This document shows, in pieces, positions 9,741-64,000 of a DNA stretch of 64,000 nt. The DNA is from Candidatus Saccharimonadota bacterium. GTDB taxonomy: Bacteria > Patescibacteriota > Saccharimonadia > Saccharimonadales > DTSZ01. The stretch lies in contig DTSZ01000001.1 of the NCBI GenBank assembly GCA_012965045.1, forward strand, positions 812,024 to 876,023, given 5' to 3'. The notes under the pieces were generated by a model, which ran no database searches, was not told the DNA's origin, and saw nothing but the letters and a program-made list of their open reading frames with translations. Numbering within the stretch: the stretch's first letter is position 1; every line of letters starts with the position of its first letter. The position numbers were made by a program, and so were the translations under genes.

Positions 9741-9793
9741 TCAGTTTATGCTTATGCTAGACATTGTCGAGCTGTGGGTGTTTATTTATATCA

Positions 9794-13791: not shown

Positions 13792-13869
13792 AAGCCTACG
13801 GATTGCGTGACTGTACGCTGTCTTACGTTTGGTACAATTAAGTAAATATAACGGGTGGATGGAGGGTTC

Positions 13870-14565: not shown

Positions 14566-14613
14566 TTATAAATTTAGTTAATAAAATTTAAAGTGATGGG
14601 AAAGGGGTCAGAG

Positions 14614-43790: not shown

Positions 43791-44358
43791 CATGAATTTT
43801 ATTGAAAGTCTTAATAAATTTTTCTTTAATAATTATAAATATCTTGTAACAGCTGCACTAGTTGTGGTCGCTGGATATTGTATGAGTTATGTAGTTGTGT
43901 CAAATAGCGAAAACTCAAAAACTACTACACCGGCAATAAAACCAGCAGAGACTATCTTGGTTGGGGCTACTGCTGCCGAGCGAAATGGTTCGAACCAATC
44001 GGCAATTGACTACATAAATGAACAGATAAGCTCATGCGATTGTGTTATAGAGAACGAGTCATTACTCTACCTAAAGCGCGCAGAATATGAATCTTCACTT
44101 GGCAATTACCAAGCAGCCACTGATTCTTACTCACAGGCATTAGCGTTTTACGAAGAATACCCAGACCCTAGGATTGTTTATGAGTATGCACAGGCAGCTG
44201 CCAACTCCGGCAATAGTGAATTAGCCCTTCAGCAGTTCACCTTCTTACAGTCGCTACTAGACTCGGAGCATATTCAGTCATACCAAATCACTCAGACTGA
44301 AGTAGATAAAATTGCAGAAGATACAGAGCAGTTTTTAGCAGAGAATTCCAATGACTAA
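43777..44358 (+). CDS. single-TM protein with a TPR-like ectodomain (paralog 2 of 3)
   Basis: TM helix YLVTAALVVVAGYCMSYVVV and the TPR-like GNYQAATDSYSQALAFYEE. It overlaps its upstream neighbour by 14 nt. Confidence 0.6.
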   Translation: MMKTSMNFIESLNKFFFNNYKYLVTAALVVVAGYCMSYVVVSNSENSKTTTPAIKPAETILVGATAAERNGSNQSAIDYINEQISSCDCVIENESLLYLKRAEYESSLGNYQAATDSYSQALAFYEEYPDPRIVYEYAQAAANSGNSELALQQFTFLQSLLDSEHIQSYQITQTEVDKIAEDTEQFLAENSND

Positions 44359-44914
44359 AGTTAGTGACTCCTCAAAAACCCCAAACGTAGCTAAAGTTAG
44401 TATTGCATTAGTCGTGCTTGTACTACTTGGAATTATGCTAGTGCTTTTAGGATTTCTTTTTCCTAATGCTGGTTCTGATGAATCTAAAGCTCTTGTTTCT
44501 CAAGAATCTGACGCTGCATTAGCAAGTGCTGTTATATCAGCAAACGAAGCTGCAGAGCTTGGGAGCCTGGATATCGCTTTGCAAATTATGCAAGATTATG
44601 AAGATTCTCAAACAGGCATAGATAAAGACTATGCAAGTCTCGCTAAAGCTCGGTTGCTAATAGATTATGCAGAGTACAAAGAAGCCCAGGTGGTTCTTGA
44701 AAGTCTAATATTGAATGATAATGACTTCTTGGCATATGAATCTTTAGAACTTTTAGCATACTCTTACGAACTACAAGAGAATTACGAACAGGCTCTAACC
44801 TATTACGGATACGCTCTTGAAATTACAGCCAGGCACGAAGAGAGTTTTAAGCAAGAAAAGCAATTTATCACTAATAAATTAGATGAGTTAACTTACTATA
44901 TCGAAACACGCTAG
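44351..44914 (+). CDS. single-TM protein with a TPR-like ectodomain (paralog 3 of 3)
   Basis: TM helix VSIALVVLVLLGIMLVLLGFLF and the TPR-like ENYEQALTYYGYALEI. It overlaps its upstream neighbour by 8 nt. Confidence 0.6.
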   Translation: MTKVSDSSKTPNVAKVSIALVVLVLLGIMLVLLGFLFPNAGSDESKALVSQESDAALASAVISANEAAELGSLDIALQIMQDYEDSQTGIDKDYASLAKARLLIDYAEYKEAQVVLESLILNDNDFLAYESLELLAYSYELQENYEQALTYYGYALEITARHEESFKQEKQFITNKLDELTYYIETR

Positions 44915-49900: not shown

Positions 49901-51895
49901 CTGTCATTACTGCAAGATGGTCAAGATACCGACAGTAATCCTCCGTACACCAACCCAAGTGAACCTGTCACGTATACATCGACTGTAGACTCTCTGGATA
50001 GAGCAGAATTAGTGTGGGATGAATATATTGATTGGACTCAGGTTGACGACAAAGGCCATTGGAGCACAACAAGAGCTCAGAATATAGTGACGGGTATCGA
50101 TCGCGGCCCGAGCACAAGAGAAACTCTTTATTGGGATTCGTATACAGTGGGCACACCTGTGCCAAATCATACTCACTACAATACCTGCGATGAGTCTGGC
50201 AGCACCGATCCTGATGATGAAGATTATAATCCTGACTACCAAACGTGTTACAGCTACAACAACCACGATCACGTACGAGAGACATGCGACAACACTTCTT
50301 ATGACACAGCGCCTACCTATATAAAGAACACAAAAACATATACCCCAAGAAATTTGGAAACTCGGTATGGCTGGTTGAATACAAGTAAAACCCTCAGTTC
50401 ACTAAACGGAACAAATACTAATAGTTATTTTGGGGGGGACCCAACAACCAACCCGACGTGGGCAAATACAGGCAATACAGCGTATTGGCAGGATACAAGT
50501 ATTACTCCTATGGACAATTCAGGCTCTACAAATAAACCACCACACACACAGCGCTGGGAGTATAACACTACCGATAAAGCTTATTCAAAGCGCTATATTT
50601 ACTCAGGATCTACTACGCCAAACTTCAATAGCTCGTATACAACAAATAGTTCAGAAGTTTGTATTTATGATAACGGAAGCATAAATAACGATAATAATTC
50701 AAGGTCTTATACTTGGTATCCTTCTGCAAGTAATCTGTATGAATCGTCTGCAACTCCAAGCGGCCATGTGTACGGAGTGTATGGCTCTGGCGCTGCTGGC
50801 AACGGTGGTCTAACTGGCAACGGTGATGGTAGGGTTGATAATACTGTTGATACTGGCTGGCAGTGGGTATCTAATCCGCAACGAGTCCGGTACGAAACTA
50901 GCTATACTGACCACTACAGAAGGCTCGGAGAAAGACTAAGCGCATTAGAGGGCGGCATACCTGGAGCCGTAACTGACAACTTGTTATATGGGTTGCAGCC
51001 AAATTCTAACCTGCCAACTGCAGCATCGATTCTACCTGCTCGCGGACGTTCAACTATATTTAACGCCACAATCGGGACTGCTAATGCTGACGTATTTTCA
51101 GCCGGGAGGTTAGACAGTTACTTTAACTCGAGCACCTTTGGTTCTGCATTTATATTCACAAGTTCAAACGGCATTACAAATATCAATGGTCCAACAGGAA
51201 CTAATTGCGCGGCTTCCACTACATTTTGTAACTACATTATTAATCCCGATGAAGATGCTGCCGGGAATTATCTGAATGGCAATATAGAAGCAGTTTTCAC
51301 GAACTATGACCAGCTGGTTGATAATTCAGTAGGTACAATTAGCGGCACGGGAAGCACTAATATTCGAGATAAAATCTATCATCATACAGGAGACCTAACG
51401 CTTACTGACAAAACCGTAACAGGCGGTGCTGGATTAATAATTGTCGAGGGAGATTTGCGAATAAGGTCAACTAACGGAACTGGTAACGGACTGGTATATG
51501 GCCCAAGCGGCTCAAATAGAGAAACCCTACCATCTCTGGGTATTATTGTCCGAGGACGAGTTATTATTGAAGACAGTGTGCGCCGGGTAGACGCAAACAT
51601 ATTCACAGCAGGCTGCTTTATAATTGACAGCAGGATAGCTGATGCTAACGCTGGATGCACTAACTTCTTTGGGTCGACAGACACTACAACAAATGACATG
51701 CCCTTTAGGCTGAATGGTCTCGTAGTCGCTCGACGTTTTGCATTGCTACGACAACCCAGTGGGGCAAGGCTGAGTGCAAATTCTAATGCAGAGTTTTTCA
51801 ACTACGATGGGCGCGTAGTGGTTAATACTCCTCCTGGCTTTTCTCGGATATTTAGTGAGGCGGCTGACTGGAATGAAGCTACACCGAGGAATTAA
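46901..51895 (+). CDS. 1664-aa secreted/surface giant protein (putative adhesin) directly upstream of pilN
   Basis: Signal-like N-terminus (VGIGLISLFLTLFLHSNLYAQ), N/T/S/G/D-rich composition and closely spaced Cys pairs. The C-terminal ~250 aa has a beta-helix-like periodicity (GGAGLIIVEGDLRI...GIIVRGRVIIEDSV...LNGLVVARRF). Confidence 0.8.
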   Translation: MWLKKIDSRKKVHMVGIGLISLFLTLFLHSNLYAQTVGSRIIPNNELTYNGSQVNTDPNIFIEAADAGAGSGLHAPTVRLKLLFPADDPNPNKQVDLFDIACNRNTNGGTTSFDNANNGSGVRWDADGHCIATDTVVKFFGTNAQETIVGQPFLQLGYNKAGNPAYPVDRDLKNPIFSNNWATIDINLNDLPAEAEPSNYHGMHVVVLEVTLEDAVDSGSGPFSVNAFKAQISSGTNGYISYRSPGVRSVCTFNQLGEKDCSEAQASSAYNSGSGVAGGDNNSYSFQERGNNDFDQDFYFEFAVPCIQPKDNNDQPLNFFLKWFDADWGGIETDTISWELHEVDRDGNSVRLITSQADSQLGGNAVYGEAEIPGQPDGTKMVWIWRNVNRTNGVRLWVPFDSVSYNNSFREDLHNWYANSNGIDYDPDNSCAGIDPQGNDLKVQGMKVIGENSNITTPPNGSEVQTASIDMQGMTSSPNPTTAQPYEFNDISYDEEQVFTPQVPSGYRLLGYTLCENPDGTPKLYGLSGPGIPSPEQPCDHSTLDVTPMPGGTMTLPTIAEPQTASTTFYVDLWFHYASNDNYITFHKVNADDCTTLASSDPPSSATIRRTSPSRPTENSSAITGTFIAGSTNNVSILNTTYAGWTYEGARAQTTSACSTNGIANVNNRNVSFNANDNNVTKHVFFYFSKDDELGFPEHKIYGANLISMPNALRDNQTFRADVDAYIWPDATTRTNQSGVSKYLWVSGIYGNDSGDTLNLDSSPKANVNSITSLNLEAELNCPGSSCKKRVPLAYVPQSDNLGIPNTNGTKGKDRSTTPNGNHWLTIKQEQTNDSRIAVSVDSNQVISCGTYGKQAYNPNCGGIFSNNSTADIGGHTGNNIENVEISNIRVRAVGVDSDAKNTLLQGKVDSAALQLWDRNRYTEAGELPSGSQGPDPILPRWDNVRNPNTDDTGFNQTTIPNRIEFPNSSGSPSNFSFDPQNVSESQADGRKQQIRDVTLLSLLQDGQDTDSNPPYTNPSEPVTYTSTVDSLDRAELVWDEYIDWTQVDDKGHWSTTRAQNIVTGIDRGPSTRETLYWDSYTVGTPVPNHTHYNTCDESGSTDPDDEDYNPDYQTCYSYNNHDHVRETCDNTSYDTAPTYIKNTKTYTPRNLETRYGWLNTSKTLSSLNGTNTNSYFGGDPTTNPTWANTGNTAYWQDTSITPMDNSGSTNKPPHTQRWEYNTTDKAYSKRYIYSGSTTPNFNSSYTTNSSEVCIYDNGSINNDNNSRSYTWYPSASNLYESSATPSGHVYGVYGSGAAGNGGLTGNGDGRVDNTVDTGWQWVSNPQRVRYETSYTDHYRRLGERLSALEGGIPGAVTDNLLYGLQPNSNLPTAASILPARGRSTIFNATIGTANADVFSAGRLDSYFNSSTFGSAFIFTSSNGITNINGPTGTNCAASTTFCNYIINPDEDAAGNYLNGNIEAVFTNYDQLVDNSVGTISGTGSTNIRDKIYHHTGDLTLTDKTVTGGAGLIIVEGDLRIRSTNGTGNGLVYGPSGSNRETLPSLGIIVRGRVIIEDSVRRVDANIFTAGCFIIDSRIADANAGCTNFFGSTDTTTNDMPFRLNGLVVARRFALLRQPSGARLSANSNAEFFNYDGRVVVNTPPGFSRIFSEAADWNEATPRN

Positions 51896-51943: not shown

Positions 51944-52612
51944 ATGAATATCAAAATAAACTTACTTCCAGATATTATTTTACAGCAGCGACGAGAGGCG
52001 TTTGTTAAGAAGGTTATTGACTTTGTTTTTATTGGTTTTATGGGGCTACTCGTACTTGTCTGGCTGATATTGCAACTGCTAGTTGCATCCAGTAACAGTT
52101 CTGTGACCTCAATAACAGAAGAAAAGCAGCAGTTATCCGAAGAAGTAAACTCAGATGCGAATATTGCAATAAGAAATGAAGCTGCAAAAATTCAAAATGC
52201 GCTAGATTCTTTGATTGCACTGTATGAAACACAGAGCAAGCCAGCCGAGCTACTCCGAAAGCTTGCTGCAGTGGTTCCCGAAGATGTGATTATAAGTGAG
52301 CTTTCGCAAAGTGATGAAGGATTAATTAGTGTTACAGGCACGTCTACAAGTAATGAGTTTATCGCACAATTTATAGCAGGGTTATTAAATACAGAAAAAG
52401 AATTTTTAGACACTGAAGAAAATACAGAAGGATATTTTACAGGTACGGCACTTTCTCAAACTGTGCTCGGAGACGAAGGAGTGTATTCATATAATATAAC
52501 AACCGAATTTGTTCCAAGTTTCGTAGTTTTTGATGACATCACAGAAGGCGAAAACCCTACAGGTGAAGAATTGTTCGAAGATATCGAGAACGATCAGGAG
52601 GGGGCTCAGTAA
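51944..52612 (+). CDS. pilN: type IV pilus assembly protein PilN
   Basis: MNIKINLLPDIILQQRRE followed by a TM helix, the classic PilN N-terminus. Confidence 0.75.
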   Translation: MNIKINLLPDIILQQRREAFVKKVIDFVFIGFMGLLVLVWLILQLLVASSNSSVTSITEEKQQLSEEVNSDANIAIRNEAAKIQNALDSLIALYETQSKPAELLRKLAAVVPEDVIISELSQSDEGLISVTGTSTSNEFIAQFIAGLLNTEKEFLDTEENTEGYFTGTALSQTVLGDEGVYSYNITTEFVPSFVVFDDITEGENPTGEELFEDIENDQEGAQ

Positions 52613-53262
52613 TGTCAAACGTTAAAATGAGTAAAACGATCAGTAATAAAATAGGCTATTATTTATTAGCTGGATTAGCTGCGCTTTTTGCTTCATGGTA
52701 CTTACTTTACGCTAAACAATTAAGCACATTAAGCGAAAATAGTGCTGAAAAAGCATTCATGCAGCAAGAGATTACCGAACTCAATAATTTAGCAACAGCT
52801 ACACAAGAGCTAGAGGCGAACCTACAGTCAATCTCTGAAGAAGCTGACAGGGCACTGGCGCTACTTCCTGTTGGCGTAGACGAAGATCGACTACTTTCGT
52901 TAATGTCGTTTTTTGAAACACAAAGTGGAGTTATTATGACAAGCTTTACTCCTGTTGGTGTATCTAGTTTGCTCGAAGGTGATGAGGAGTCCGATGAACC
53001 TTTTTCAACATATTCCGTAAGCATAGGGATAACTGGAACCTATGAAGAACTACTATCATTTTTTGATCTACTAAGTAATAGCGCCCGATTTATTAGCGTT
53101 GATAAACTTTCAGTACTCGGAGGTGGCACTGAAGAAAACCCGCGCTTATCTGTAGATATTGCTATCGAAGCTTATTTCCAGACTGACCCAGCAAATTCAG
53201 CTACTGACGATGAGTTTTTAGGTGACGACGGCGTAGTAGATGAGGAGGTAATAGATGGCTAA
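52612..53262 (+). CDS. pilO: type IV pilus assembly protein PilO-like
   Basis: TM helix, a coiled coil, then ALALLPVGVDEDRLLSLMSFFETQSGVIMTSFTPV. It is start-stop coupled to pilN. Confidence 0.6.
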   Translation: MSNVKMSKTISNKIGYYLLAGLAALFASWYLLYAKQLSTLSENSAEKAFMQQEITELNNLATATQELEANLQSISEEADRALALLPVGVDEDRLLSLMSFFETQSGVIMTSFTPVGVSSLLEGDEESDEPFSTYSVSIGITGTYEELLSFFDLLSNSARFISVDKLSVLGGGTEENPRLSVDIAIEAYFQTDPANSATDDEFLGDDGVVDEEVIDG

Positions 53263-53587
53263 AACTACAAAACATCAAACAGCTTCTAAGCCTACGAAAG
53301 TTCCCAAAGTTGTAAAAAGTGAGTCTCCTAAGTCAAAGCCAGAGTTGTCACCTCATGTAAATAGGAAACAAATAAATGAAATTATTTTACTCGGGCTAGT
53401 GCTAATCCTTGTGGCGGTAGTGGTGTACTTAACTATGATTAAAAAGCCTGTGGAAGTCCTTCCTGAAGAATCAGTAATTCCGACGGAGTTCGAGGAGCAG
53501 AGTCTTAATGAAATCAAAAAAAGAGACAGCAACTACCCATCCGTCAACACCGAAGACTTAGGTAAGCCTAATCCTTTCAGTAATTAA
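53255..53587 (+). CDS. small single-TM pilus-operon protein (PilP-like?)
   Basis: 110 aa with a TM helix. The C-terminal GKPNPFS recalls the PilP xDPF motif, and the gene sits after pilO. Confidence 0.3.
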   Translation: MAKTTKHQTASKPTKVPKVVKSESPKSKPELSPHVNRKQINEIILLGLVLILVAVVVYLTMIKKPVEVLPEESVIPTEFEEQSLNEIKKRDSNYPSVNTEDLGKPNPFSN

Positions 53588-53589
53588 CT

Positions 53590-54807
53590 ATGGCTGCTAA
53601 CGACTATACCTATAAAGCAATAGACTCGACTGGCGAAAATATAGTCGCGACTATTCGAGCAACTAATGTTGAAGAAGCATCAAAAATGCTAATCGCTAAA
53701 AATCTTTATCCTTACAGCGTAGAGCCGTATCGAGGAAATAAATTTAATACACAATTCCTACAAGATAAACTCAAGAAAATAAGCGCAAATGACAGGGTGA
53801 TTTTCACTCGACAACTTGCAACGCTAATTAAAGCTGGGCTCCCAATTGCTTCTGCAATGAGGCTGCTAATTGATCAGATGGAAAACGTCAAAATGCAAGA
53901 CATTGTCCGTGAATTATCTATATCAATTGAGGCAGGCAATTCTTTGGCGGAAGGACTTCAAAAGTACCCAGATGTATTTAGTAAAGTTTATGTAAACGTT
54001 GTATCAGCTGGTGAGGTATCAGGAAATCTCGACGACACACTTTCTAAGCTTGCCACTCAAGAAGAAAAGAACGCTACTATCAATAGGAAGATTAAAGGAG
54101 CACTAACGTATCCGATTGTGGTGCTTGTTGTTGTTTTGCTTGTGTCAGGGTTAATGATCACAGTCGTTCTACCAGAGGTAGGTAAAATATACACTGAGTT
54201 GAATCGTCCAATTCCAGCGCAGACCAATATGCTGCTCGGGCTGGCAAGCTTTTTGACTAAATTTTGGTTCCTTATTCTATTTGGATTGGCTGGAATGTTT
54301 TTGGGAGTCCGCTCCCTGGCGCAAACTGATAAAGGAAGAAGGACGATTGACCGCTTTAAATTAAATATTCCTGGTTTCAAAACCCTCATCCGCAAGGTAT
54401 ACATGACTCGGTTTACTAGCACTCTGAGCTCATTAATTAACAGCGGTGTCCCCATGCTGCAGTCGTTAGAGATTACAGCAAATTCAATAAATAACATTCA
54501 TCTTGAGGAGTCAATCCGCCTGATCGCTCAGCGCGTTAAATCTGGCGCCACGCTTTCTAAGCCGATAGAAGAGGATGAAAACTTCCTGCCGTTAGTGGGT
54601 AAAATGATAAGTGTCGGTGAAGAAACTGGCAGCATTGGTGATAGTTTAGCTAAAGTTACCGGCTACTATGAAGAAGAGGTTGATCAGGCCATTGACAACT
54701 TATCGAGCCTAATTGAACCGGCAACAATGATTCTTTTAGGTGGAATGATCGCTTTCCTGGTTGCTGCTGTACTACTACCTATATACGGCCTTGTAAACGG
54801 AGGGTAG
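53590..54807 (+). CDS. pilC: type IV pilus platform protein PilC (GspF family)
   Basis: 405 aa with a duplicated T2SSF domain and three TM segments. The N-terminus is YKAIDSTGENIVATIRATNVEEA. Confidence 0.9.
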   Translation: MAANDYTYKAIDSTGENIVATIRATNVEEASKMLIAKNLYPYSVEPYRGNKFNTQFLQDKLKKISANDRVIFTRQLATLIKAGLPIASAMRLLIDQMENVKMQDIVRELSISIEAGNSLAEGLQKYPDVFSKVYVNVVSAGEVSGNLDDTLSKLATQEEKNATINRKIKGALTYPIVVLVVVLLVSGLMITVVLPEVGKIYTELNRPIPAQTNMLLGLASFLTKFWFLILFGLAGMFLGVRSLAQTDKGRRTIDRFKLNIPGFKTLIRKVYMTRFTSTLSSLINSGVPMLQSLEITANSINNIHLEESIRLIAQRVKSGATLSKPIEEDENFLPLVGKMISVGEETGSIGDSLAKVTGYYEEEVDQAIDNLSSLIEPATMILLGGMIAFLVAAVLLPIYGLVNGG

Positions 54808-54836
54808 TTGACAGTAGTTTTGAATAAGCTTATGAT
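54808..54836 (+). promoter_or_regulatory. strong sigma-70 promoter for the major pilin gene
   Basis: TTGACA (54808-13), a 17-nt spacer, then TATGAT (54831-36). The SD sequence TAAGGAG lies before the ATG at 54888. Confidence 0.55.
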
Positions 54837-54887
54837 TAGAAATATAGTATAGCTATTGAAAAATAAATTAAGTATAAGGAGTGGGCA

Positions 54888-55322
54888 ATGCTCAAAAAAT
54901 TAAACAAAGACAGTAAAGGATTCACCTTGATTGAGATAGTCATTGTACTTGCAATTGGTGCGTTGATTATTCTAGTTGTTATCCAAGCAGTCGGGGCCGC
55001 TCGTCGATCGCAACGCGACAGCGCTCGTAAAAGTGAAGCCGGCCGAATCGCTGCGATAATGGAGCAGTATGCTGCTAATAATAATGGACTATATCCAGCC
55101 AACACTGGTGCTAACGGTGTTGATGCAGCGCTTGATGATTATGATGCGACACTAGGTACTAAGTATACATTTACGACAGGTAGTAACCCTGCAACGCAGT
55201 GTCCTGCAACAGTAACTTCGAATACATTCGTAATGCTTTATCAACGGGGCGCTGGTGGACGATCATATGGTCTACGCGCTTGCCTTGAATCAGGCACTGA
55301 TCGAACAAACTACGGCCAGTAA
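54888..55322 (+). CDS. pilA: type IV major pilin
   Basis: Prepilin leader MLKKLNKDSKG / FTLIEIVIVLAIGALIILVVI. The 144-aa gene has its own promoter and a strong terminator. Confidence 0.88.
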   Translation: MLKKLNKDSKGFTLIEIVIVLAIGALIILVVIQAVGAARRSQRDSARKSEAGRIAAIMEQYAANNNGLYPANTGANGVDAALDDYDATLGTKYTFTTGSNPATQCPATVTSNTFVMLYQRGAGGRSYGLRACLESGTDRTNYGQ

Positions 55323-55349
55323 GCCTTCGTTAGATCAGTAAAAAATCAT

Positions 55350-55380
55350 AAAAAACCTCGCTTTTACAGCGAGGTTTTTT
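55350..55380. terminator. rho-independent (bidirectional) terminator after pilA
   Basis: AAAAAACCTCGC, loop ttttaca, GCGAGGTTTTTT: perfect 12-nt complementary arms with A/T tracts on both sides. Confidence 0.85.
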
Positions 55381-55424
55381 AAAAACTACAATACCGTAGT
55401 TTAAGTGCTATAATTTAATTAATA

Positions 55425-56099
55425 ATGAAGCTTATGTTAAAAGAAAAACAAGCAGGTTTTACATTAATAGAAATTTCTATTGTTCTAGCGCTTACAGCGT
55501 TTTTGGGCTATGTTTTAGCAGGATCGTTTAAAAGTAATAATCGAATCGAAACATTCAACACTAGTATCCAAGAATTAGCATCTTATATCAGAGAGACTCA
55601 GTCTAAAAGTTATGCCGTTGAACGACCATCAACTGGAGAAACGGCAAGAGGCAGTTTTCTTAATTTCGAACCTACGAATAATGTTGCACGAAGAAGCTTG
55701 TTGTATGGATTTAGTCTAGAAAGGAACAGTCAGAATCAAAGAGCTGGAATTGTAGGTCGAGAAATAACACCAGACGTCTTTGATTTTACAACAAAAGAAT
55801 TAGACCTGAGGTCGGTAGTATATGATGTGAGTGGCTCAATGGACGACAGTAGCGGATCATTAATTAGGGATAAATCAACATCCGGATTGACGGGCCTTGC
55901 TAGCCTTTCACCTAATGGCCAAGGCTATTTGCTGCACGGGACGACTGTTAGCGATCCATCTAACTATCACTCTGGAAGTATTAAGGTTTTTATCTGTGAA
56001 CTTAGCAACCGCTCAAATAAGTTAACTGCAAGAGTGACAATAAATACCATTAGCGGTATTATTGAAACAGAAGTCGGTGGAAATTTAGTAGCATGCTAA
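55425..56099 (+). CDS. minor pilin / pseudopilin
   Basis: Prepilin motif KQAG / FTLIEISIVLALTAFLGYVL. Confidence 0.8.
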   Translation: MKLMLKEKQAGFTLIEISIVLALTAFLGYVLAGSFKSNNRIETFNTSIQELASYIRETQSKSYAVERPSTGETARGSFLNFEPTNNVARRSLLYGFSLERNSQNQRAGIVGREITPDVFDFTTKELDLRSVVYDVSGSMDDSSGSLIRDKSTSGLTGLASLSPNGQGYLLHGTTVSDPSNYHSGSIKVFICELSNRSNKLTARVTINTISGIIETEVGGNLVAC

Positions 56100-56695
56100 T
56101 AAAAATAACTAATCTAAAGAACTCTGAGTCAGGTTTAACACTGGTAGAATTAGTTATTTCCCTGGCCCTGTTGCTAGCTGCAGTTATTGCAAGCTCACGA
56201 CTTATGAACGCGGCTGCGCGTAGCTCTGCCGAAGCGGGACGTCGCACTCAAGCAACATTTCTAGCCGAGAGAGAATTTGAACTAATAAAGAACATCCGAG
56301 ATGGGAATATTACCGCAGGCAGAAATGCGTGGCAAGGCCTGGACTTAACGGATCTCGGTTCAGCCACAAAGGAATGTGTTAATTTCTACATGGATGGCAA
56401 TAATAATCCAAATAGTCCACAATTTACTAAAGTTAATTTAGGCCCTGATGTTACACAACAGTATGATAATAATGATCGACTTTCGAGTTCTGAATCAGGG
56501 GATTCTTACGCAACTTTCAGTAGAAAAGCAACGATGTGCGAAGACATCAACAACACGCCAGGCTCTACGCTCAATGGCAGGTATGACAACAACATACGTC
56601 GCATAACAATCACCGTTGAATGGCAGGAAAGCAACGGCCCCACTAGATCAGTAGAGATTGCAAATTCATTAACAAATTGGAGTCAGGGGCTGTGA
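56093..56695 (+). CDS. minor pilin (PilV-like)
   Basis: Prepilin motif SESG / LTLVELVISLALLLAAVIA. Confidence 0.75.
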   Translation: MLIKITNLKNSESGLTLVELVISLALLLAAVIASSRLMNAAARSSAEAGRRTQATFLAEREFELIKNIRDGNITAGRNAWQGLDLTDLGSATKECVNFYMDGNNNPNSPQFTKVNLGPDVTQQYDNNDRLSSSESGDSYATFSRKATMCEDINNTPGSTLNGRYDNNIRRITITVEWQESNGPTRSVEIANSLTNWSQGL

Positions 56696-57285
56696 AGTTA
56701 ATCGACGACATAAGAGGTTTCACACTGACTGAGGTCACCATAGCAATGGCCATCTTGTCGGTTGCCATTACCGGGGCAGCGGCAACTTTCATCACTCTAT
56801 CCCGACTACATCAAAAGACGATAGCTATCCAAGAAATACAGCAAGAGTCACGATTTGTAGTTGAATCTATTGAGCGGGACATAGCAAACAGTTCGAACGT
56901 ATATACCCGCGAAATGACATTAGGAGTGCCTGACGACGGGGATCCTTCGAATGATATGCTCGTAATTGAAAGTGGAATAATTGATAGACAAGAAATCCGC
57001 TATACGATCGAAACAGATGCTGGTAGACGTCGGCCATATAGGCAGCTATGTACAACAGTTACTAACGGTGCAGGTTTATGCACCGGTCAAGCAAAAGCCC
57101 CAATGACTAGTTCTGATATATTTTTAGTTAGTGGTCAATTTACGAAATATACCTCTGCTCAAACTGGCACCGGAGCAGGACTTGTCGCACTTTCTATGAC
57201 ATTTGAAAAAAATTCGAATCTAACGCGTGAAGACCCTTATTTTTCAGCATATCAAGTAAACTCCGCAGTATCGGTGATGGATTAG
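56692..57285 (+). CDS. minor pilin (PilW-like)
   Basis: GTG at 56692 in a GTGA overlap with the upstream stop. Prepilin motif DDIRG / FTLTEVTIAMAILSVAITGA. Confidence 0.7.
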   Translation: MKLIDDIRGFTLTEVTIAMAILSVAITGAAATFITLSRLHQKTIAIQEIQQESRFVVESIERDIANSSNVYTREMTLGVPDDGDPSNDMLVIESGIIDRQEIRYTIETDAGRRRPYRQLCTTVTNGAGLCTGQAKAPMTSSDIFLVSGQFTKYTSAQTGTGAGLVALSMTFEKNSNLTREDPYFSAYQVNSAVSVMD

Positions 57286-57288
57286 AGC

Positions 57289-59511
57289 ATGAAAATAAGA
57301 CTAGTAGCATATGACCAAAAAGGATTCGCAGCACTGTTCGCATTGCTATCGTTCAGTCTTTTATTAGTCACTATCAGTGTCTCGGCTAGTAGGCTAGCAA
57401 CATCCGAAATCAGAAACGCATCTAGTAATGATTTGTCTTCTAGAGCCTCCGCTGCCGCTGATGCAGGGATAGAAGAAGCGTTTCGGAGATTAGAAGAAAA
57501 TCCCCACGAAGAAGACCTGAGCGACCTATTTCCAGAGCAAGCAGGCTCAGTCCGTGGAGATAGGGCTGTCTTAGTTCGAGAGGACCAGCCTTCGGTTAAT
57601 CTTCAGGTTGTCAGAGATACTGGGGTTAGTAGTCCAGGGGATCTTGAATATTGGGAACAGCGGAAAGTATATAACGCATCTTTTAATACAAGCGGGATAC
57701 AGCAAAAAGATGAGACAATTCAAATCGATTTATCTGATTTGGGGCAGATAGGCCCAGACGGTAGACTGTGCAGCCAAGATAATGTTGCATGTGACGGCAC
57801 TACGCCCCTCCACCCATCTGTAGATGGCATAACGTATTGTGTTTTAAATTTAACCTCGATCGACACACCGGAATTTGAATGGACTATATCTGACTATGCT
57901 GTAAATAATCCAGCGAACATACGCACCAATAAATACTTAGTCAATTACAATGGCGGTATTGATAATATTACCTCAACTGGAGGTGTTTCACAGGTAGCTG
58001 GCCCCCCTAATGAACGCTGCTTTAGATTTACTATCCCAAATCGCACTGGACGCCGATATATATTACGAATCAAGCCTATTTATGACACATTAAATCCGAT
58101 AGCCCGTTCAAACAATCAGCAAGAACTACGAGTGAGCTATAACGTAAAGCTAAACCATACCGTATCCGGTGGACAGGTTGTTATTAAGGATAACTCCGTA
58201 ATAGTAGATGTAACAGGTGTAGCAGCGGGCGGAGAAATTGCAGTTAGGAAAATTGCTAAAAAAGATCGAAACGGCCGACTCCTCGGTTTATTCGACTATG
58301 TTCTTTATTCTGGCGATCCAGGATTCCCTCTATGTAAAGCCGGAGTGTTGTTTGATCCTAATAATGACGGAAACCCAGACGATCTTACCTACAACTTACC
58401 GATATGTAGTGGATCTGCTGCAGGAAACCAGACGCCAGGCTGTACTGATCCGCTGGCTCTTAACTACAATCCAGATGCAACTCAAGATAATGGTGGCTGT
58501 CAGTATCCAGTTGCGGGATGTACGGACCGGTCTGCGTTTAATTATAACCAACAAGCGACAATTGATGACGGTAGCTGTCAATACAGCGACAACAATCCTG
58601 TTGCCCCACCATATCAGCCTCATTTTAAAATTGAATCCAATCAATTTAGAGACAGCAGTGGTCGTTCAGGGGCCGCGATAAGCGATAGAACTGCTGATAA
58701 CGGCGTGGCAAGTGCTATAACGCGTACTCGCAGCACATTCAACTACACATACACAGGAAGCACTACATACCAGCAGTTCATGATAGCAGCCCGACCCAAT
58801 AGCTCAGACTCAGTTATAGTTGGCTTCTATCTCAATAATCAATTAACTGGCATTTTTAACGTAAATGACGCCCTAAATTATCGAGCGTATTCAATAGATG
58901 TAGATGTCGAGCAAGGAGACGTCATCTCAATTGTCTACGAGAGGGATAACACTAGCGGCAACAGTGAATTATATTTAGACTATGCAGGATTAAACAACCC
59001 AGTGGCGCCGCCACCACCACCGCCGCCACCACCACCGCCACCGTCGCGAGAGCGAAGTTCGGAGAATATTTCGTTCCAAAAAAATGTCGTTTTCGAGGAA
59101 TTAAGTTCGGGATGCGGGAGGTTTTCTCGGTATCTTGATGGTGATCCATCTAGCGTCAATGACGGGTACCGCGACACGGTATTCTATCCTCCAGGCACTA
59201 GAGACTGTCCGCTTAGTGTCGTAGTTGATTTGGGCAGAGACTATAGCTTAAGCGAAATAAGAGTTGAGTGGGGGCGTTACGGCTGCCAGCATTATCAAGA
59301 TTGCAGCATGGGGGGCAGCTATATTGACACACACAATGTAGGCGGTGTAGATTCGGCCCGCAGGTTCGGTCAAACTATCTTCGGTGGTTGGAGTCCAGGT
59401 GGTACGTCTACAACCTGGAGGGGATCGGTAGATTCCGTACGATACTTGAGGTTGTATGCGAGTACTTCCTTCGATTGGATTGGTGTCTATGAAATAGAGG
59501 CTTATGAATAA
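57289..59511 (+). CDS. PilX-like large pilus-associated protein with Cys-bracketed NYN repeats, a Pro12 linker and a C-terminal discoidin (F5/8 type C)-like domain
   Basis: The N-terminus QKG/FAALFALLSFSLLLVTISV is pilin-like without Glu5. It has a 2x GCTDxxAxNYNxxATxDxGxCQY repeat and APPPPPPPPPPPPS. The C-terminus has SVNDGYRDTVFYPP...VVDLGRDYSLSEIRVEW...YLRLYAS...GVYEIEAYE. Confidence 0.75.
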   Translation: MKIRLVAYDQKGFAALFALLSFSLLLVTISVSASRLATSEIRNASSNDLSSRASAAADAGIEEAFRRLEENPHEEDLSDLFPEQAGSVRGDRAVLVREDQPSVNLQVVRDTGVSSPGDLEYWEQRKVYNASFNTSGIQQKDETIQIDLSDLGQIGPDGRLCSQDNVACDGTTPLHPSVDGITYCVLNLTSIDTPEFEWTISDYAVNNPANIRTNKYLVNYNGGIDNITSTGGVSQVAGPPNERCFRFTIPNRTGRRYILRIKPIYDTLNPIARSNNQQELRVSYNVKLNHTVSGGQVVIKDNSVIVDVTGVAAGGEIAVRKIAKKDRNGRLLGLFDYVLYSGDPGFPLCKAGVLFDPNNDGNPDDLTYNLPICSGSAAGNQTPGCTDPLALNYNPDATQDNGGCQYPVAGCTDRSAFNYNQQATIDDGSCQYSDNNPVAPPYQPHFKIESNQFRDSSGRSGAAISDRTADNGVASAITRTRSTFNYTYTGSTTYQQFMIAARPNSSDSVIVGFYLNNQLTGIFNVNDALNYRAYSIDVDVEQGDVISIVYERDNTSGNSELYLDYAGLNNPVAPPPPPPPPPPPPSRERSSENISFQKNVVFEELSSGCGRFSRYLDGDPSSVNDGYRDTVFYPPGTRDCPLSVVVDLGRDYSLSEIRVEWGRYGCQHYQDCSMGGSYIDTHNVGGVDSARRFGQTIFGGWSPGGTSTTWRGSVDSVRYLRLYASTSFDWIGVYEIEAYE
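58441..58584 (+). repeat. two tandem 24-aa Cys-bracketed repeats (CTDPLALNYNPDATQDNGGCQY / CTDRSAFNYNQQATIDDGSCQY)
   Basis: Read directly from the translation of the 57289 gene. Confidence 0.85.
59008..59043 (+). repeat. 12 consecutive proline codons (CCG/CCA)
   Basis: ccgccaccaccaccgccgccaccaccaccgccaccg. Confidence 0.95.
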
Positions 59512-60337
59512 TAAACTTTTAGTAAAACTATTTACAGTGATTGTCATTGTAGTTGTGGCTAGTGTGTATGTTAATTTCGATACAAATCCCGAAGGGGCAC
59601 GTATTGATGGTTTCATGATTAGCCAAGATGTGGCAGAAAATGACCTTAGAATCACAGAACTAGAAAAAGAGATTTACGACGCTACTAACCAAACCAGTAT
59701 CGAATTTAACATTGAAGACCGATACAAGCGAAATTTAGTAATTAGTAAATACGCCCTTGAGTATTCGCTTAATGTGACAGAGCAGGAGGTTAATCGGACA
59801 TTTACAACAGACGTTCCGCAAACTGAACCTATCCCCGGCATTCAGGAACAGCCAGAATTTTTCACCCCAGCAGATATCTTAACTACTGAGGATCTAAAAC
59901 TTTTACACATAAAACAACTGCAACTTCAAAAAGTCGTCGATCATATTAACAAATCTAATCAGCTACAACCTTTAATTGACGAAAACTTACAACGGGCAAA
60001 AGCAGCATTAGATGAACTTTCATCAGGCACCCCGGTTCTGACTGTTTTTAAAGAATACGCACCTCATGAAATTGTGCTCAATGATGATTCTGAAGAAACA
60101 ATTGAGCCCACTCCCATAGACCTACTTCCTAATATTGATCAAAAATTAATCAATCAGTATGCTCCAGGCGATCTTGTAAATATTATTATTCGCGAAGAAA
60201 CCGTACCTACTATTTATATCCGTGACTCAAGGGATGAAGACAATGTGTATGTTTTGAAATTCTTAAGCCCTTCAGCATATTCCTGGATTCAAAGCCAGGT
60301 CGAAAAAGCCGACATTGTTATGGGAGTAAGTCCTTAG
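59504..60337 (+). CDS. membrane-anchored hypothetical protein within the pilus operon
   Basis: ATGAATAA overlap with the upstream stop. N-terminal TM helix LFTVIVIVVVASVYV. No motif recognised. Confidence 0.55.
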   Translation: MNNKLLVKLFTVIVIVVVASVYVNFDTNPEGARIDGFMISQDVAENDLRITELEKEIYDATNQTSIEFNIEDRYKRNLVISKYALEYSLNVTEQEVNRTFTTDVPQTEPIPGIQEQPEFFTPADILTTEDLKLLHIKQLQLQKVVDHINKSNQLQPLIDENLQRAKAALDELSSGTPVLTVFKEYAPHEIVLNDDSEETIEPTPIDLLPNIDQKLINQYAPGDLVNIIIREETVPTIYIRDSRDEDNVYVLKFLSPSAYSWIQSQVEKADIVMGVSP

Positions 60338-60378
60338 ATTTATTGTTTATTAACAGGTAATGATATAAGCTATTAAGC

Positions 60379-61410
60379 ATGAGCATATTAGATAAAAACG
60401 TAAAATATTTCGGTCTTGATATTGGTCAATCATCTGTTCGATTGGTTGAATTAGATAAAGGCCAAACTAAACCAGTTTTAAAGCACTATGGGCTTATTCC
60501 GACTGACACAGGGCTAGAAAGTGATGCAGAAAGTATCGCCGAGGATCTAGGGGCGAAAATAAAACAGCTGATAGGTCAATCAAAGAGCAGTGCTAAATTT
60601 GCCGTCGTTGGTTTAAGTGCTCTAAATTCATTCAGCAACCTGATCGTAACTCCAAAACTTGCAAAGAAAGACCTAGAAGGCGCTATTCGCTTGCAAGCTG
60701 ATCAATATATACCGATGGAATACAGTAAAGTTAAGGTTGACTGGGACTTAGTAGGTGAAACTAAAGATGGACAGTCGGAAGTATTTTTAGCTGCAGCACC
60801 TAAGACTATGGTTAATAAAGTGCTTCGCATAACTCAAGCAGCAGGACTTGAGCTTTTAGCAATAGAAGTTAATGCTGTAGCAATGGCTCGTAGTCTTAGC
60901 GATGAGAACGATAATTCGGTTGCCATATTAAATATTGATGATAACTTTTCAGAAATAATTATTGCTCGTAATGCTAAACCGTATCTAACTAGAAGCTTAG
61001 ACGTTGGAAACGAAACCTTAATTCGTACTGCCATTCAAAACTTAAATATTGATGATGCGCAAGCAAGGGAATTCGTGTATAAGTTCGGACTCACAACCAC
61101 TAAGCTGGAAGGTCAAGTATACAAAGCACTTAAAGGATCTATTGATAGTTTGGTTGGAGAAATAAAAAAATCAGTAGAATTTTATCAGAGCCAACATTCT
61201 GATGAGGGCATAGAAAAGCTTATACTCGCAGGAGGGGCTGCATCAATACCTGAACTTCCAGTTTATTTAGCCAACGCACTTAATACGTCCGTTGAGATTG
61301 CTAATCCTTGGAGTAGTATAAGTTATCCTGCATCAATGCAAGACAACCTAATGCAATACGCAACGCAATTTACAGTTGCTGCAGGCCTAGCACTACGTAT
61401 GTATAAATAA
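60379..61410 (+). CDS. pilM: type IV pilus assembly protein PilM (actin-like ATPase fold)
   Basis: YFGLDIGQSSVRLVEL N-terminus and LILAGGAASIPEL near the C-terminus. Confidence 0.85.
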   Translation: MSILDKNVKYFGLDIGQSSVRLVELDKGQTKPVLKHYGLIPTDTGLESDAESIAEDLGAKIKQLIGQSKSSAKFAVVGLSALNSFSNLIVTPKLAKKDLEGAIRLQADQYIPMEYSKVKVDWDLVGETKDGQSEVFLAAAPKTMVNKVLRITQAAGLELLAIEVNAVAMARSLSDENDNSVAILNIDDNFSEIIIARNAKPYLTRSLDVGNETLIRTAIQNLNIDDAQAREFVYKFGLTTTKLEGQVYKALKGSIDSLVGEIKKSVEFYQSQHSDEGIEKLILAGGAASIPELPVYLANALNTSVEIANPWSSISYPASMQDNLMQYATQFTVAAGLALRMYK

Positions 61411-61428
61411 GGTTTACTAGGTAGCCTT

Positions 61429-63228
61429 ATGATTTTGACGAACGAAGCTCAACAGAAGCTAGAAAAACTCATCATTGATGCGGGATTTCTGAGCAAGGAA
61501 GAGGTTGACCAACTTAAAGTAGATTCTGCAAAGACAAAAAAATCTATTCTCACCCTAATAAACGAACGTAATTTAGTCACAGAAGAAAGCTTAACGAAGC
61601 TTACAGCGCAAGCTAACGGCCTACAGTATGCGAATCTAACTGCCTTTAGGCCTCAACCGGATATCTTGGAAAAAATACCTCGAGAAATTGCTGAGAGCTA
61701 TCAAGCAGTACCGATCGGAATGATGAAAGGTCATTTAGCGGTGGGAATGATAGATCCTTCAAATATTCAAGCGATCGACTTTCTGAGTCGAAAAATTAAT
61801 AGCTCTATTACGCCGGTCTTGGTGTCAGGCTCAAGTATCCAAGCGGTTCTAAAACAATATAAAACCGATGTGGCTCAAGAAGTAACTGACGTTATGAGCT
61901 CGGTAACAGATGTTATAGAAAAAGAAGCACAAAAAGAGGCTGCAAAACAGTCGGCCTCAAAGAAGGACTCAACATTAAACAATATTGTTCAGGATGCACC
62001 GATAACTCGTGCTTTAAAGACCATAATGGAGTATGCCTTTAAGCAAGGTGCATCAGATGTTCACTTTGAACCGCGACCTGAAGGATTTCGTGTTCGCTTT
62101 CGTATCGACGGTATATTACAAGAAGTTATGACCATGCCGAAAGCTATTGAACCAGCGATTGTTTCCCGAGTAAAAATTTTATCCAGATTAAAGATTGACG
62201 AGCACCGTATACCGCAAGATGGTGAATTCCGCATGACTATTGATGGAACTGATGTCGACCACCGTGTGTCTGTATCTCCGGTGATCTATGGTGAACAAAT
62301 CGTGATTCGTCTGCTTGTTAAAGATTCGGGGCTACTTACTCTCGATAAACTTGGTTTTAAAGGCGACGCGTTGAGGACTTTAGAGCGTGGTATTAAAAAA
62401 CCTAACGGCATGGTGCTTTCTACTGGCCCAACGGGTTCCGGTAAGTCAACTACGCTGTATACACTCATTACCTTCATTAAAGACATTGCCATAAATATCG
62501 TTACGCTTGAAGACCCAGTGGAGTACAAAATGGATGGCATTAACCAGATCCAGGTTAATAGTGAAGTAGGTTTAACGTTTTCGAGTGGATTACGTTCAAT
62601 TCTTCGTCAAGACCCCGATGTAGTTATGGTTGGTGAGATCCGAGATGGCGAGACCGCTTCACTTGCCGTCCAAGCTGCCCTTACGGGCCACCTTGTGCTT
62701 TCGACACTGCACACCAACTCAGCGCCAGGTGTTTTACCTCGACTGCTCGACATGGAAGTTGAACCATTCCTGATTGCTTCAACTGTTAATACTGTTATCG
62801 GGCAGCGCCTCGTCCGCCGCTTGTGCGAGACCTGCAAAGAAGAGGTCCAGTCAACTGACGCTCAAGCCGAAGCTATTCAGGACACTTTGAGTAACGTACT
62901 AGCAAAGTCAGAGTCCGGTAAAGCCAAGGTGGCAGAACGCACTGGTCTGGATAATTTGCCATTACTTACCGATAAAGCTTATACTTTATTTAAACCTGTA
63001 GGCTGCGAAGAGTGTAGCGATGGCTACAAAGGACGCATGGGAATATATGAGGTGTTCGAAGTCGACGATAATATAGAAAAAATTATCTCCAAAGACACTA
63101 CAACATCTCAAATTACCAAGATCGCTGTCGAGCAAGGCATGATAACCATGAAGCAAGACGGCTACCTTAAAGCATTAACAGGCATAACAACTGTCGACGA
63201 GGTTGCGCGAGTGGCCTCAGCAACATAG
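61429..63228 (+). CDS. pilB: type IV pilus extension ATPase PilB (GspE family)
   Basis: N-terminal GspII-like domain, Walker A GPTGSGKSTTLYT, the Asp box/Walker B MVGEIRDGETA, and a tetracysteine-region remnant CETC...GCEEC. Confidence 0.92.
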   Translation: MILTNEAQQKLEKLIIDAGFLSKEEVDQLKVDSAKTKKSILTLINERNLVTEESLTKLTAQANGLQYANLTAFRPQPDILEKIPREIAESYQAVPIGMMKGHLAVGMIDPSNIQAIDFLSRKINSSITPVLVSGSSIQAVLKQYKTDVAQEVTDVMSSVTDVIEKEAQKEAAKQSASKKDSTLNNIVQDAPITRALKTIMEYAFKQGASDVHFEPRPEGFRVRFRIDGILQEVMTMPKAIEPAIVSRVKILSRLKIDEHRIPQDGEFRMTIDGTDVDHRVSVSPVIYGEQIVIRLLVKDSGLLTLDKLGFKGDALRTLERGIKKPNGMVLSTGPTGSGKSTTLYTLITFIKDIAINIVTLEDPVEYKMDGINQIQVNSEVGLTFSSGLRSILRQDPDVVMVGEIRDGETASLAVQAALTGHLVLSTLHTNSAPGVLPRLLDMEVEPFLIASTVNTVIGQRLVRRLCETCKEEVQSTDAQAEAIQDTLSNVLAKSESGKAKVAERTGLDNLPLLTDKAYTLFKPVGCEECSDGYKGRMGIYEVFEVDDNIEKIISKDTTTSQITKIAVEQGMITMKQDGYLKALTGITTVDEVARVASAT

Positions 63229-63241
63229 GGTGGAGAAAAAT

Positions 63242-64000
63242 ATGGCTACGACACAACAAGTACGGATCGAAACACTGTTAGAAACAGTATTAAAAAAAGA
63301 TGCTTCAGACCTTCATATTCAGTTAGCTTCTAAGCCTATGCTTCGTATTGATGGCCAACTTGTGCCAGTTGAAAACTCTACCGAATTAACAGAAGAACAA
63401 GTTGAGTCACTTATTTTCTCAGTTCTAGACGACGACCAAAAAAAGATCTTACTCAAAGATAAAGAAATTGATTTCTCTTTTGCATTTGGTGATTTGGGGC
63501 GGTTCCGCGCCAACGCCTTTCATGAACGTGGCAATTTAGCGCTTGCACTTCGACTTATTCCTAATGAAATTCGAACCATTACTGATCTTGGACTACCTAA
63601 AGTAGTCAGCGCGTTTACGGAATATGGCAGAGGCCTCGTGTTGGTGACTGGACCAACTGGCTCCGGTAAGTCAACAACATTGGCGGCCATGATCGACAAG
63701 ATAAATGAAGAAAAAGCAACTCACATCATAACTATCGAAGACCCAATTGAGTATATTCATAAAAGTAAGAAGGCCTTGATTGTTCAGCGCGAACTTCATT
63801 ATGACACTGTTTCTTTCGGCGAGGCGCTGCGTTCATCATTGCGGCAAGACCCTGACGTAATCCTCGTTGGCGAGATGCGAGACCTAGACACAATCTCTAC
63901 TGCAATTACACTGGCAGAAACCGGACACTTGGTTTTTGCCACGCTCCACACCAACTCTGCAGCCCAAACAGTGGATCGCCTTGTTGATGTGTTCCCACCT
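63242..64000 (+). CDS. pilT: twitching-motility retraction ATPase PilT, 3' end cut by the window
   Basis: My translation from ATG 63242 gives MATTQQVRIETLLETVLKKDASDLHIQLASKPMLRIDGQL...GPTGSGKSTTLAAMIDKIN...VGEMRDLDTISTAITLAETGHLVFATLHTNSA. Confidence 0.9.
   Translation, partial: MATTQQVRIETLLETVLKKDASDLHIQLASKPMLRIDGQLVPVENSTELTEEQVESLIFSVLDDDQKKILLKDKEIDFSFAFGDLGRFRANAFHERGNLALALRLIPNEIRTITDLGLPKVVSAFTEYGRGLVLVTGPTGSGKSTTLAAMIDKINEEKATHIITIEDPIEYIHKSKKALIVQRELHYDTVSFGEALRSSLRQDPDVILVGEMRDLDTISTAITLAETGHLVFATLHTNSAAQTVDRLVDVFPP

Follow-up and report, generated by a model that had tools for sequence, protein, structure and literature searches.

What kind of apparatus is encoded by a run of pil genes in which pilM stands about 8 kb away from pilN and pilO, and which is not accompanied by any gene for a secretin? 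The question is raised by the last part (positions 51944 to 64000) of a stretch of 64,000 nucleotides (nt) from Candidatus Saccharimonadota bacterium (assembly GCA_012965045.1, contig DTSZ01000001.1, positions 812,024 to 876,023), the whole of which is called the window here. The region very probably represents, in full, the type IVa pilus (T4aP) locus of an uncultured Saccharimonadia bacterium and the counterpart of the Saccharibacteria locus termed T4P-1 or T4P1, an assignment based on the strong E-values of the gene products, on PilM and PilT passing curated cutoffs, and on the pilD gene that follows pilT. While the system itself is known, the window locus is set apart by a clade-specific gene order, an enlarged putative tip pilin, and an embedded putative foldase paralogue.

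Thirteen open reading frames (ORFs) run head to tail on the plus strand from 51944 to the window end, either overlapping or separated by gaps of at most 48 nt, except around pilA. The ORF list, together with Pfam and NCBIfam profiles, confirms the pil genes at the coordinates and on the single strand assigned to them in a preliminary description of this DNA. Related stretches and sequences used for comparison are labeled L001, L004, L008, L013, L082, L086, and P0001; L001 is the locus that reaches past the window end, supplying the complete PilT as well as pilD. The features of the locus are as follows (aa, amino acids).

51944..52612, plus strand: pilN, 222 aa; Pfam PilN, E 2.3e-7; one transmembrane helix
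52612..53262, plus strand: pilO, 216 aa; Pfam PilO, E 1.6e-10; weak GspM/T2SSM_b matches
53255..53587, plus strand: small bitopic protein, 110 aa, following pilO
53590..54807, plus strand: pilC, platform protein, 405 aa; Pfam T2SSF, E 3.5e-59, two repeats
54808..54836, plus strand: sigma-70-type promoter-like site before pilA, TTGACA-17-TATGAT
54876-54881: AAGGAG ribosome-binding site of pilA
54888..55322, plus strand: pilA, major pilin, 144 aa; class III signal KG↓FTLIEIV; Pfam N_methyl, E 4e-8
55349..55381: intrinsic terminator of the bidirectional type after pilA; perfect 14-bp stem, 5-nt loop, A6 upstream, T6 downstream
55425..56099, plus strand: minor prepilin, 224 aa; AG↓FTLIEIS; Pfam N_methyl, 2e-5; weakly GspH/ComGD-like N terminus
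56093..56695, plus strand: minor prepilin, 200 aa; SG↓LTLVELV; N_methyl; weak PilV/GspI-like matches
56677..57285, plus strand: minor prepilin, 202 aa; RG↓FTLTEVT; N_methyl; weak GspI/GspJ/ComGF-like matches
57289..59511, plus strand: putative PilX1-like large tip pilin, 740 aa (p740)
58438-58578: two 23-aa Cys repeats of p740 (aa 384-430), GCTDPxAxNYNxxAxxDDGSCxY
59504..60337, plus strand: membrane-anchored, strongly diverged PrsA/PpiD/SurA-like protein, 277 aa
60379..61410, plus strand: pilM, actin-like cytoplasmic ring protein, 343 aa; Pfam PilM_2, E 4.4e-43
61429..63228, plus strand: pilB, extension ATPase, 599 aa; Pfam T2SSE, 4.6e-128, and MshEN, 1.5e-15
63242..64000, plus strand: pilT, retraction ATPase, first 253 of 357 codons; the gene is cut by the window end
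L001:12893-13699, outside the window: pilD, 268 aa; A24_N_bact and Peptidase_A24

The motor and alignment proteins carry the sequence elements characteristic of their families. The start of pilO overlaps the stop of pilN, and the N terminus of PilN, MNIKINLLPD as read from the translation, contains INLLP, the canonical motif through which PilM is bound. For PilM, the score with TIGR01175 is 176 bits, with a cutoff of 133. PilB combines an MshEN N-domain with the Walker A sequence GPTGSGKST and a CxxC...CxxC zinc motif. The full-length PilT, comprising 357 aa when completed from L001, reaches 480 bits against TIGR01420 (cutoff 319) and includes the sequence SAVRNIIRE, a motif of the AIRNLIRE type, while its Walker and catalytic residues are kept in the C-terminal third that lies beyond the window. 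Both the score and the motif support the earlier proposal that PilT would make these pili retractile.

The gene for the prepilin peptidase PilD starts 5 nt after the stop of pilT, just past the window end, and its product carries the motif GGGDVK (read from the translation). The earlier observation that no pilD is present holds for the window itself, but the gene is by no means absent, being located directly behind pilT in L001. Profile searches of the large window ORFs and of the 8 kb downstream found no Secretin domain, and there was no PilP hit in the window or in the same 8 kb; the lack of pilQ reported for the window therefore extends 8 kb past its end, where no adjacent secretin is found. 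A pilus devoid of a secretin is established for the candidate phyla radiation (CPR) and Saccharibacteria, hence it comes as no surprise (PMC6744442, PMC11623550, PMC10633639). PilB, PilT, PilC, PilM, PilN, PilO, and PilD are co-localized in CPR genomes, and PilQ is lacking throughout the CPR (PMC6744442). In the remaining 52 kb of the window there are housekeeping genes, with neither a second pilus locus nor a further prepilin among them.

The order of the genes was compared with that in 80 related loci found by a PilB scan of species-representative genomes, with positions mapped by tblastn synteny and ORF maps wherever the contig was long enough. Nearly all of these relatives are metagenome-assembled genomes (MAGs) of Saccharimonadia/Saccharibacteria, with PilB 51-60% identical to that of the window. 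The usual order, present in 77 of the 80, starts with a transmembrane protein with TPR repeats and a large secreted protein, continues with pilM, pilN, pilO, a small gene, pilB, pilT, pilC, pilA, pilD, three minor pilin genes, and pilX1, and ends with an xer-like gene on the minus strand. In the window, the large protein is followed by pilN, pilO, the small gene, pilC, pilA, the three minor pilin genes, pilX1, the PrsA-like gene, pilM, pilB, pilT, and pilD, again with the xer-like gene on the minus strand at the end. Only L004, L008, and L013 share the latter order. Their PilC proteins are 52-53% identical to that of the window locus, whereas identity to all the others is at most 44%, which supports a clade formed by these four. 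As the left flank with the large secreted protein is conserved, and so is the right flank with the xer-like recombinase, the gene order is, on the evidence of this synteny, a clade-specific internal permutation between fixed flanks. The separation of pilM from pilN and pilO by about 8 kb, noted in the preliminary description, is thus real, and it differs not only from the canonical pilMNOPQ arrangement but also from the order usual in Saccharimonadia. The contact between PilM and PilN is presumably kept in spite of this distance, since the INLLP motif of PilN is intact.

The right flank is formed by a xerC/D-like tyrosine recombinase gene (L001:13716-14624, minus strand) located just beyond the window end; it follows pilD on the opposite strand and precedes bacA, ndk, and other genes. 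This recombinase is retained in 50 related loci, of both the usual and the permuted order, with about 50-55% identity. It was considered as the cause of the rearrangement and rejected, because the same flank is found in loci of the usual order and is therefore not specific to the rearranged ones.

The major pilin gene is the element around which the close packing is relaxed. PilA is 45-55% identical to the first pilin of L004, L008, and L013 and shares with the three minor prepilins the sequence G↓[FL]TL[IVT]E; N_methyl profiles and class III signals confirm the latter three as minor pilins of the prepilin type, as they had been described. The promoter-like site before pilA matches 11 of 12 consensus positions and is the top site in the 13-kb region, so that the consensus promoter ascribed to this gene is indeed the best site there, but is near-consensus rather than perfect. 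Taken together, promoter-like sites show no enrichment in the region (31 found, 27.6 expected); in a rough test, sites matching at least 10 of 12 positions stood in front of the first pilin gene for 14.5% of related loci as opposed to 2.1% of random windows, an approximately sevenfold enrichment of strong sites. The perfect bidirectional terminator reported after pilA is borne out by its uninterrupted 14-bp stem flanked by A6 and T6, with a dG of -22.1 kcal/mol and a z-score of -6.1, and of 58 related loci, 52 have a hairpin with a T-run, of -10 kcal/mol or stronger, behind their first pilin gene. Because the terminator is so widely kept and the promoter-like sites are enriched, the separate boosting and insulation of the major pilin gene is, judging by these comparisons, a conserved design. 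The first minor pilin gene (ATG at 55425) is preceded at a distance of 11 nt by an extended -10-like sequence, TGcTATAAT (55406-55414); the interval contains no Shine-Dalgarno sequence, and the site may serve a near-leaderless restart after the pilA terminator. A repeat search for silent pilin cassettes found none, only the paralogy of PilB and PilT.

The last pilin of the locus, p740, is considerably larger than its counterparts. Its signal, KG↓FAALF, does not include Glu5, as is also the case in GspK and PilX, and its core (aa 1-370) has homologues in the last pilins of L004, L008, and L013; both features agree with the PilX-like character originally attributed to it. The proteins of the latter three loci, consisting of the core only, are 397-433 aa long, and p740 exceeds them by about 340 aa. 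The extension includes the two Cys repeats, which have no Pfam model and are 50-66% identical to repeats found in many copies in hundreds of Bacteroidota cargo proteins of the type IX secretion system (T9SS, PF18962). The resemblance might stem from an exchange of modules in a marine habitat, or it might hint at the host. A β domain that follows (around aa 440-570) is common to P0001 alone, the sole full-length homologue, with 536 aa and 47% identity. A linker of twelve prolines (nt 59008-59043) then leads to the C-terminal 146 aa (nt 59071-59508), where F5_F8_type_C_2 (E 0.027) and F5_F8_type_C (E 0.049) are both matched below threshold. PDB sequence searches with the two halves of p740 returned only noise. 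The protein is best described as a putative PilX1-like tip pilin with extra C-terminal modules that are possibly lectin-like.

The 110-aa gene behind pilO had been described as pilP-like. PilP is characterized by a lipoprotein signal and by a C-terminal β-sandwich (HR) domain that binds the N0 domain of the secretin. The identification of the 110-aa gene as PilP was rejected, as the product has no lipobox, no PilP match in Pfam, and an ectodomain of only about 48 aa, and shares with PilP nothing but the position after pilO. Instead, it consists of a Lys/Pro-rich N-terminal tail, one transmembrane helix, and the short ectodomain ending with GKPNPFSN. It matches the post-pilO ORFs of L004, L008, and L013 (phmmer, 3.9e-8 to 3.4e-5) and can be aligned with about 75 ORFs for transmembrane proteins of 75-90 aa located between pilO and pilB, with which it shares a C-terminal motif of the G-x-x-N-P-F type. 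The gene is thus a member, by alignment and position, of a conserved family of small membrane proteins found behind pilO in essentially all Saccharimonadia T4P loci. Its positional equivalent in Southlakia epibionticum, SEML1_0107 (75 aa), is class-I essential (PMC10633639). In the distant Patescibacteria locus L086, the post-PilO protein (13594-14850) is as long as 418 aa and ends with GRGNPFSSL, keeping the GNPF motif; the same locus includes, between pilB and pilT (16674-17075), an ORF that resembles a response-regulator receiver domain by reading of its sequence alone.

The 277-aa protein, originally described simply as a membrane protein, is indeed membrane-anchored, and profile comparison identifies it further. 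It has no direct Pfam match of its own; a profile built from proteins with SurA_N_3 and rotamase domains detects it with an E-value of 1.9e-5 in hmmsearch, and hhalign gives a probability of 89.7% and E 1.8e-6 at 16% identity. The profile proteins, likewise membrane-anchored, fill the same slot in L004, L008, and L013, and their SurA_N_3 and PPIC-rotamase domains were confirmed by Pfam. A regular copy of the PrsA-like foldase gene is found 4 kb after pilD in the same genome. The 277-aa gene would therefore represent a diverged paralogue, distantly related to PrsA/SurA-like foldases.

On the other side of pilN, a large gene and two smaller ones precede the locus.

43777..44914, plus strand: two transmembrane proteins with TPR repeats, 193 and 187 aa; Pfam TPR; profile matches 9e-23 and 1e-13
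46901..51895, plus strand: 1664-aa protein with a Sec signal, upstream of pilN; candidate pilus-associated surface protein

The 1664-aa protein has a Sec-type rather than a prepilin signal and matches no Pfam domain, the C-terminal propeller of PilY1 included. Its C-terminal domain comprises residues 1370-1664, with a β-solenoid at approximately 1480-1660; an AlphaFold2 (AF2) model calculated with 26 relatives gives the last ~185 residues as a β-rich solenoid with a predicted local distance difference test score (pLDDT) of about 90. The best match in the PDB is the Thermus competence pilin ComZ, a weak one (E 0.03, template modeling (TM) score 0.27), and the others are generic β-solenoids. A PDB sequence search with the solenoid profile yielded only noise, and a word-indexed homologue search found none from the single sequence and one match from the profile. 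In an exhaustive search, 181 representative relatives of the domain were found; it lies at the extreme C terminus in 144 of the 150 listed, and the N termini of these proteins are variable, including PD40, fn3, PKD, Ig, or sugar-binding modules. Among the 80 loci found with PilB, the domain is almost always part of a large ORF whose end lies immediately in front of pilM or pilN, and the large protein often forms tandem pairs with the transmembrane TPR protein; the two TPR proteins of the window are of the family that precedes the large solenoid protein in related loci such as L082. The association was tested independently on metagenome contigs seeded with the solenoid domain itself (narrow alignment), which yielded seven loci; in all six with downstream sequence, pilM follows about 120 nt after the domain, with PilB 36-41% identical to that of the window.

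Whether this adjacency has a functional meaning is an evenly balanced question. The 1664-aa protein and its TPR partners may be just conserved neighbors, generic surface proteins that play no role in the pilus, and the odds of this are about even. Saccharibacteria genomes show high general synteny, the signal is of the Sec and not of the prepilin type, the ComZ match is weak, and in S. epibionticum ychF stands upstream of pilM in place of the solenoid module (PMC10633639), which makes the module dispensable for T4P-1 in that species. On the other hand, the adjacency survives the internal reshuffling, with the solenoid gene placed right before whichever pil gene comes first, pilM or pilN; it holds in all the informative distant loci; and the combination of a variable N terminus with a conserved C-terminal domain mirrors that of PilY1-type pilus adhesins. 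A functional link of the 1664-aa protein to the pilus thus has, at best, an even chance, and the proposal that it forms, together with the TPR partner, a hitherto undescribed accessory to the type IV pili of Patescibacteria is offered tentatively, as somewhat less probable than its negation. If such a link exists, the solenoid would dock either at the tip, on the complex of minor pilins, or at the wall, on the assembly of PilN, PilO, and the small protein, while the variable N terminus would set the specificity for host or surface. The 1664-aa protein could then be the functional counterpart of PilY1 or ComZ, or else span the wall as a guide in place of the missing secretin.

Directly upstream of the 1664-aa gene, a 385-aa protein (45690-46847) carries a signal similar to that of the twin-arginine translocation (TAT) pathway and CWB2 cell-wall-binding repeats (E 6.6e-19), consistent with a Gram-positive-type wall or S-layer. 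The window copy of ychF is found at 33447-34526 on the minus strand, 17 kb upstream of the pilus genes, while in S. epibionticum this gene abuts pilM. Between ychF and 46847 lie several large ORFs, of 339, 512, 542, and 554 aa, for which neither a Pfam match nor a homologue in the 80 related loci was found. Further away, three genes of the sigma-70 family lie within 5 kb beside dnaG (6214-7383, 8559-9740, and 9764-11206), one with regions 1.2-4, one with regions 2-3 only, and one a longer form of 480 aa. A 363-aa protein encoded at 2291-3382 matches several families of bacterial archaeo-eukaryotic release factors (baeRF), with the best E-value of 9e-16. Scans of the window for tRNA and Rfam families were empty.

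A pilus that is real but serves mainly in DNA uptake, for nucleotide scavenging or competence, rather than in motility or host attachment, is an unlikely alternative. CPR bacteria do not synthesize nucleotides and combine type IV pili with ComEC (PMC6744442, PMC10633639), and the best, though weak, structural match of the neighboring solenoid is a DNA-binding competence pilin, ComZ. However, the type IV pilus genes of S. epibionticum are essential whereas comEC is dispensable (PMC10633639), and it is the T4P-1 type locus of TM7x, the one that carries pilT, that is tied to twitching (PMC11623550). The modules of the putative tip pilin, moreover, are lectin-like, by a match below threshold, and not DNA-binding.

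Much less probable still is that the cluster encodes a type II secretion system (T2SS) or a Com-type pseudopilus instead of a retractile T4aP. The platform protein scores 330-342 bits against the GspF and PilC models of NCBIfam, marginally the highest against GspF (341.6), PilO also matches GspM, and PilA and the minor pilins match the N termini of ComG and Gsp pseudopilins. Several points do weigh against the assignment proposed here: the GspF model slightly outscores the PilC models, both PilB and PilC fall under the strict equivalog cutoffs of NCBIfam, the lectin-like domain of p740 derives from sub-threshold Pfam matches, and an AF2 model of p740, made with its single homologue, has a mean pLDDT of 35, which rendered it unusable, and was kept out of the fold search. 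Nevertheless, the best NCBIfam model for PilB is that of type IV-A PilB (TIGR02538, 573 bits, equivalog cutoff 676), followed by GspE with 528 and ComGA with 253; PilT passes its cutoff; PilM_2, PilN, and PilO are present; and no GspC, GspD, or GspL was found among the genes of the locus with Pfam and NCBIfam profiles. Homologous loci of TM7x make visible, motile pili (PMC11623550). NCBIfam thus places the genes in the T4aP family, and the reassignment to a Com/T2SS-type system that the preliminary description had envisaged did not emerge. Finally, the suspicion that the non-canonical order is an artefact of assembly or binning, which could arise from the metagenomic origin of the contig and from its differing from 77 relatives like a chimera would, can be practically dismissed, given the identical arrangement in three independent assemblies (JGI 3300001678, Logan SRR7792507, and JGI 3300001392), the same order in the three unrelated MAGs of L004, L008, and L013, the overlapping or abutting of genes at every junction, and a uniform GC content.

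Considering the locus as that of a T4aP, and combining the gene identities, motifs, synteny, and terminator structure observed here with the established roles of the respective families, we can propose how the machine would assemble, retract, and support twitching or host adhesion. PilD would cleave and N-methylate PilA and the three minor prepilins, and PilC would form the platform in the membrane. The ring of PilM would be tethered to the membrane via the N-terminal INLLP motif of PilN, while PilN, PilO, and the small post-PilO protein would form the alignment complex. PilB would then drive polymerization and PilT retraction. The three minor pilins and p740, devoid of Glu5, would prime assembly and so end at the tip, where the extra modules of p740 (the Cys repeats, the β domain, the polyproline linker, and a possible discoidin-like domain) would bind glycans of the host or of a surface. 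A secretin would not be needed, since the envelope would have no outer membrane. The near-consensus promoter and strong terminator of pilA would ensure a large excess of the major pilin over the minor ones.

Among the organelles of host contact and motility in Saccharibacteria and further episymbionts of the CPR, type IV pili are the best supported; in cultured strains they are essential. The locus described here, which leaves the current picture of secretin-less CPR pili unchanged, is an environmental example, apparently from a hydrothermal-plume sample, of a machine that tolerates a complete reshuffling of its gene order, including the uncoupling of pilM from pilN and pilO, and whose putative tip pilin may be of modular build and open to the acquisition of lectin-like domains. 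The machine is repeatedly accompanied by two components that are small or had no annotation: throughout the class by the post-PilO protein, and in this clade by the putative PrsA-like foldase. The β-solenoid family, almost always placed before the pilus operon, is a testable candidate for a missing component of the envelope or of adhesion.

Comparison with known systems begins with the two proteins to which the 1664-aa protein bears some resemblance. ComZ of Thermus thermophilus (6qvi) is the closest to its solenoid among the PDB entries, although ComZ, a true pilin, carries a class III signal, while the 1664-aa protein has a Sec signal and no sequence similarity to ComZ. Like PilY1 of Pseudomonas, the 1664-aa protein is large, encoded in a pilus locus, and built of a variable N terminus and a conserved C-terminal domain; in PilY1, however, that domain is a β-propeller and not a solenoid, and the sequences are not similar.

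With the T4aP of diderm bacteria such as Pseudomonas aeruginosa or Myxococcus xanthus, the window locus shares the motor, platform, and alignment proteins, the INLLP-mediated contact of PilN with PilM, a minor pilin set of four members in which the last does not have Glu5 (GspK, PilX), and a pilA that would be transcribed separately. It differs in the absence of PilQ, PilP, the PilF/Tgl pilotin, and any homologue of PilY1 detectable by sequence, as well as in the unlinking of pilM from pilN and pilO. Monoderm T4aP, as in Clostridium perfringens and Streptococcus sanguinis (Melville & Craig 2013, cited in PMC6744442), include PilB, PilC, PilD, PilM, PilN, PilO, and PilT but not PilQ or PilP, and have large modular pilins with lectin domains. 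The locus described here encodes the same set, also with no PilQ or PilP, although the sequence relatives of its genes are specific to Patescibacteria. To our knowledge, neither the small post-PilO protein nor the upstream β-solenoid module has been described for monoderm type IVa pili.

The closest counterpart is T4P-1 of Saccharibacteria. Locus one of Nanosynbacter lyticus (TM7x_00415-00475) comprises 13 genes, is essential, and is tied to twitching (PMC11623550), and the same is true of the 13-gene T4P1 of S. epibionticum (SEML1_0104-0116), also essential and linked to twitching (PMC10633639). PilX1 of TM7x is the largest pilin, with no predicted PilD signal and with a lectin-like β domain (PMC11623550). 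The window locus differs from these systems in its permuted order, which replaces the sequence of pilM, pilN, pilO, the small gene, pilB, pilT, pilC, pilA, pilD, and the minor pilins, in the extra PrsA-like gene inside the locus, in a PilX1 about 340 aa longer than in the nearest relatives, and in the large β-solenoid protein and TPR genes that take the place of ychF of S. epibionticum. It has in common with them the class of organism, the lack of a secretin, and the genes for PilM, PilN, PilO, the small protein, PilB, PilT, PilC, PilA, PilD, the minor pilins (three in number), and a large PilX1 devoid of a canonical PilD signal. As its content thus corresponds gene for gene to the known T4P-1, the secretin-less retractile pilus that the locus would encode is one already known in this lineage.

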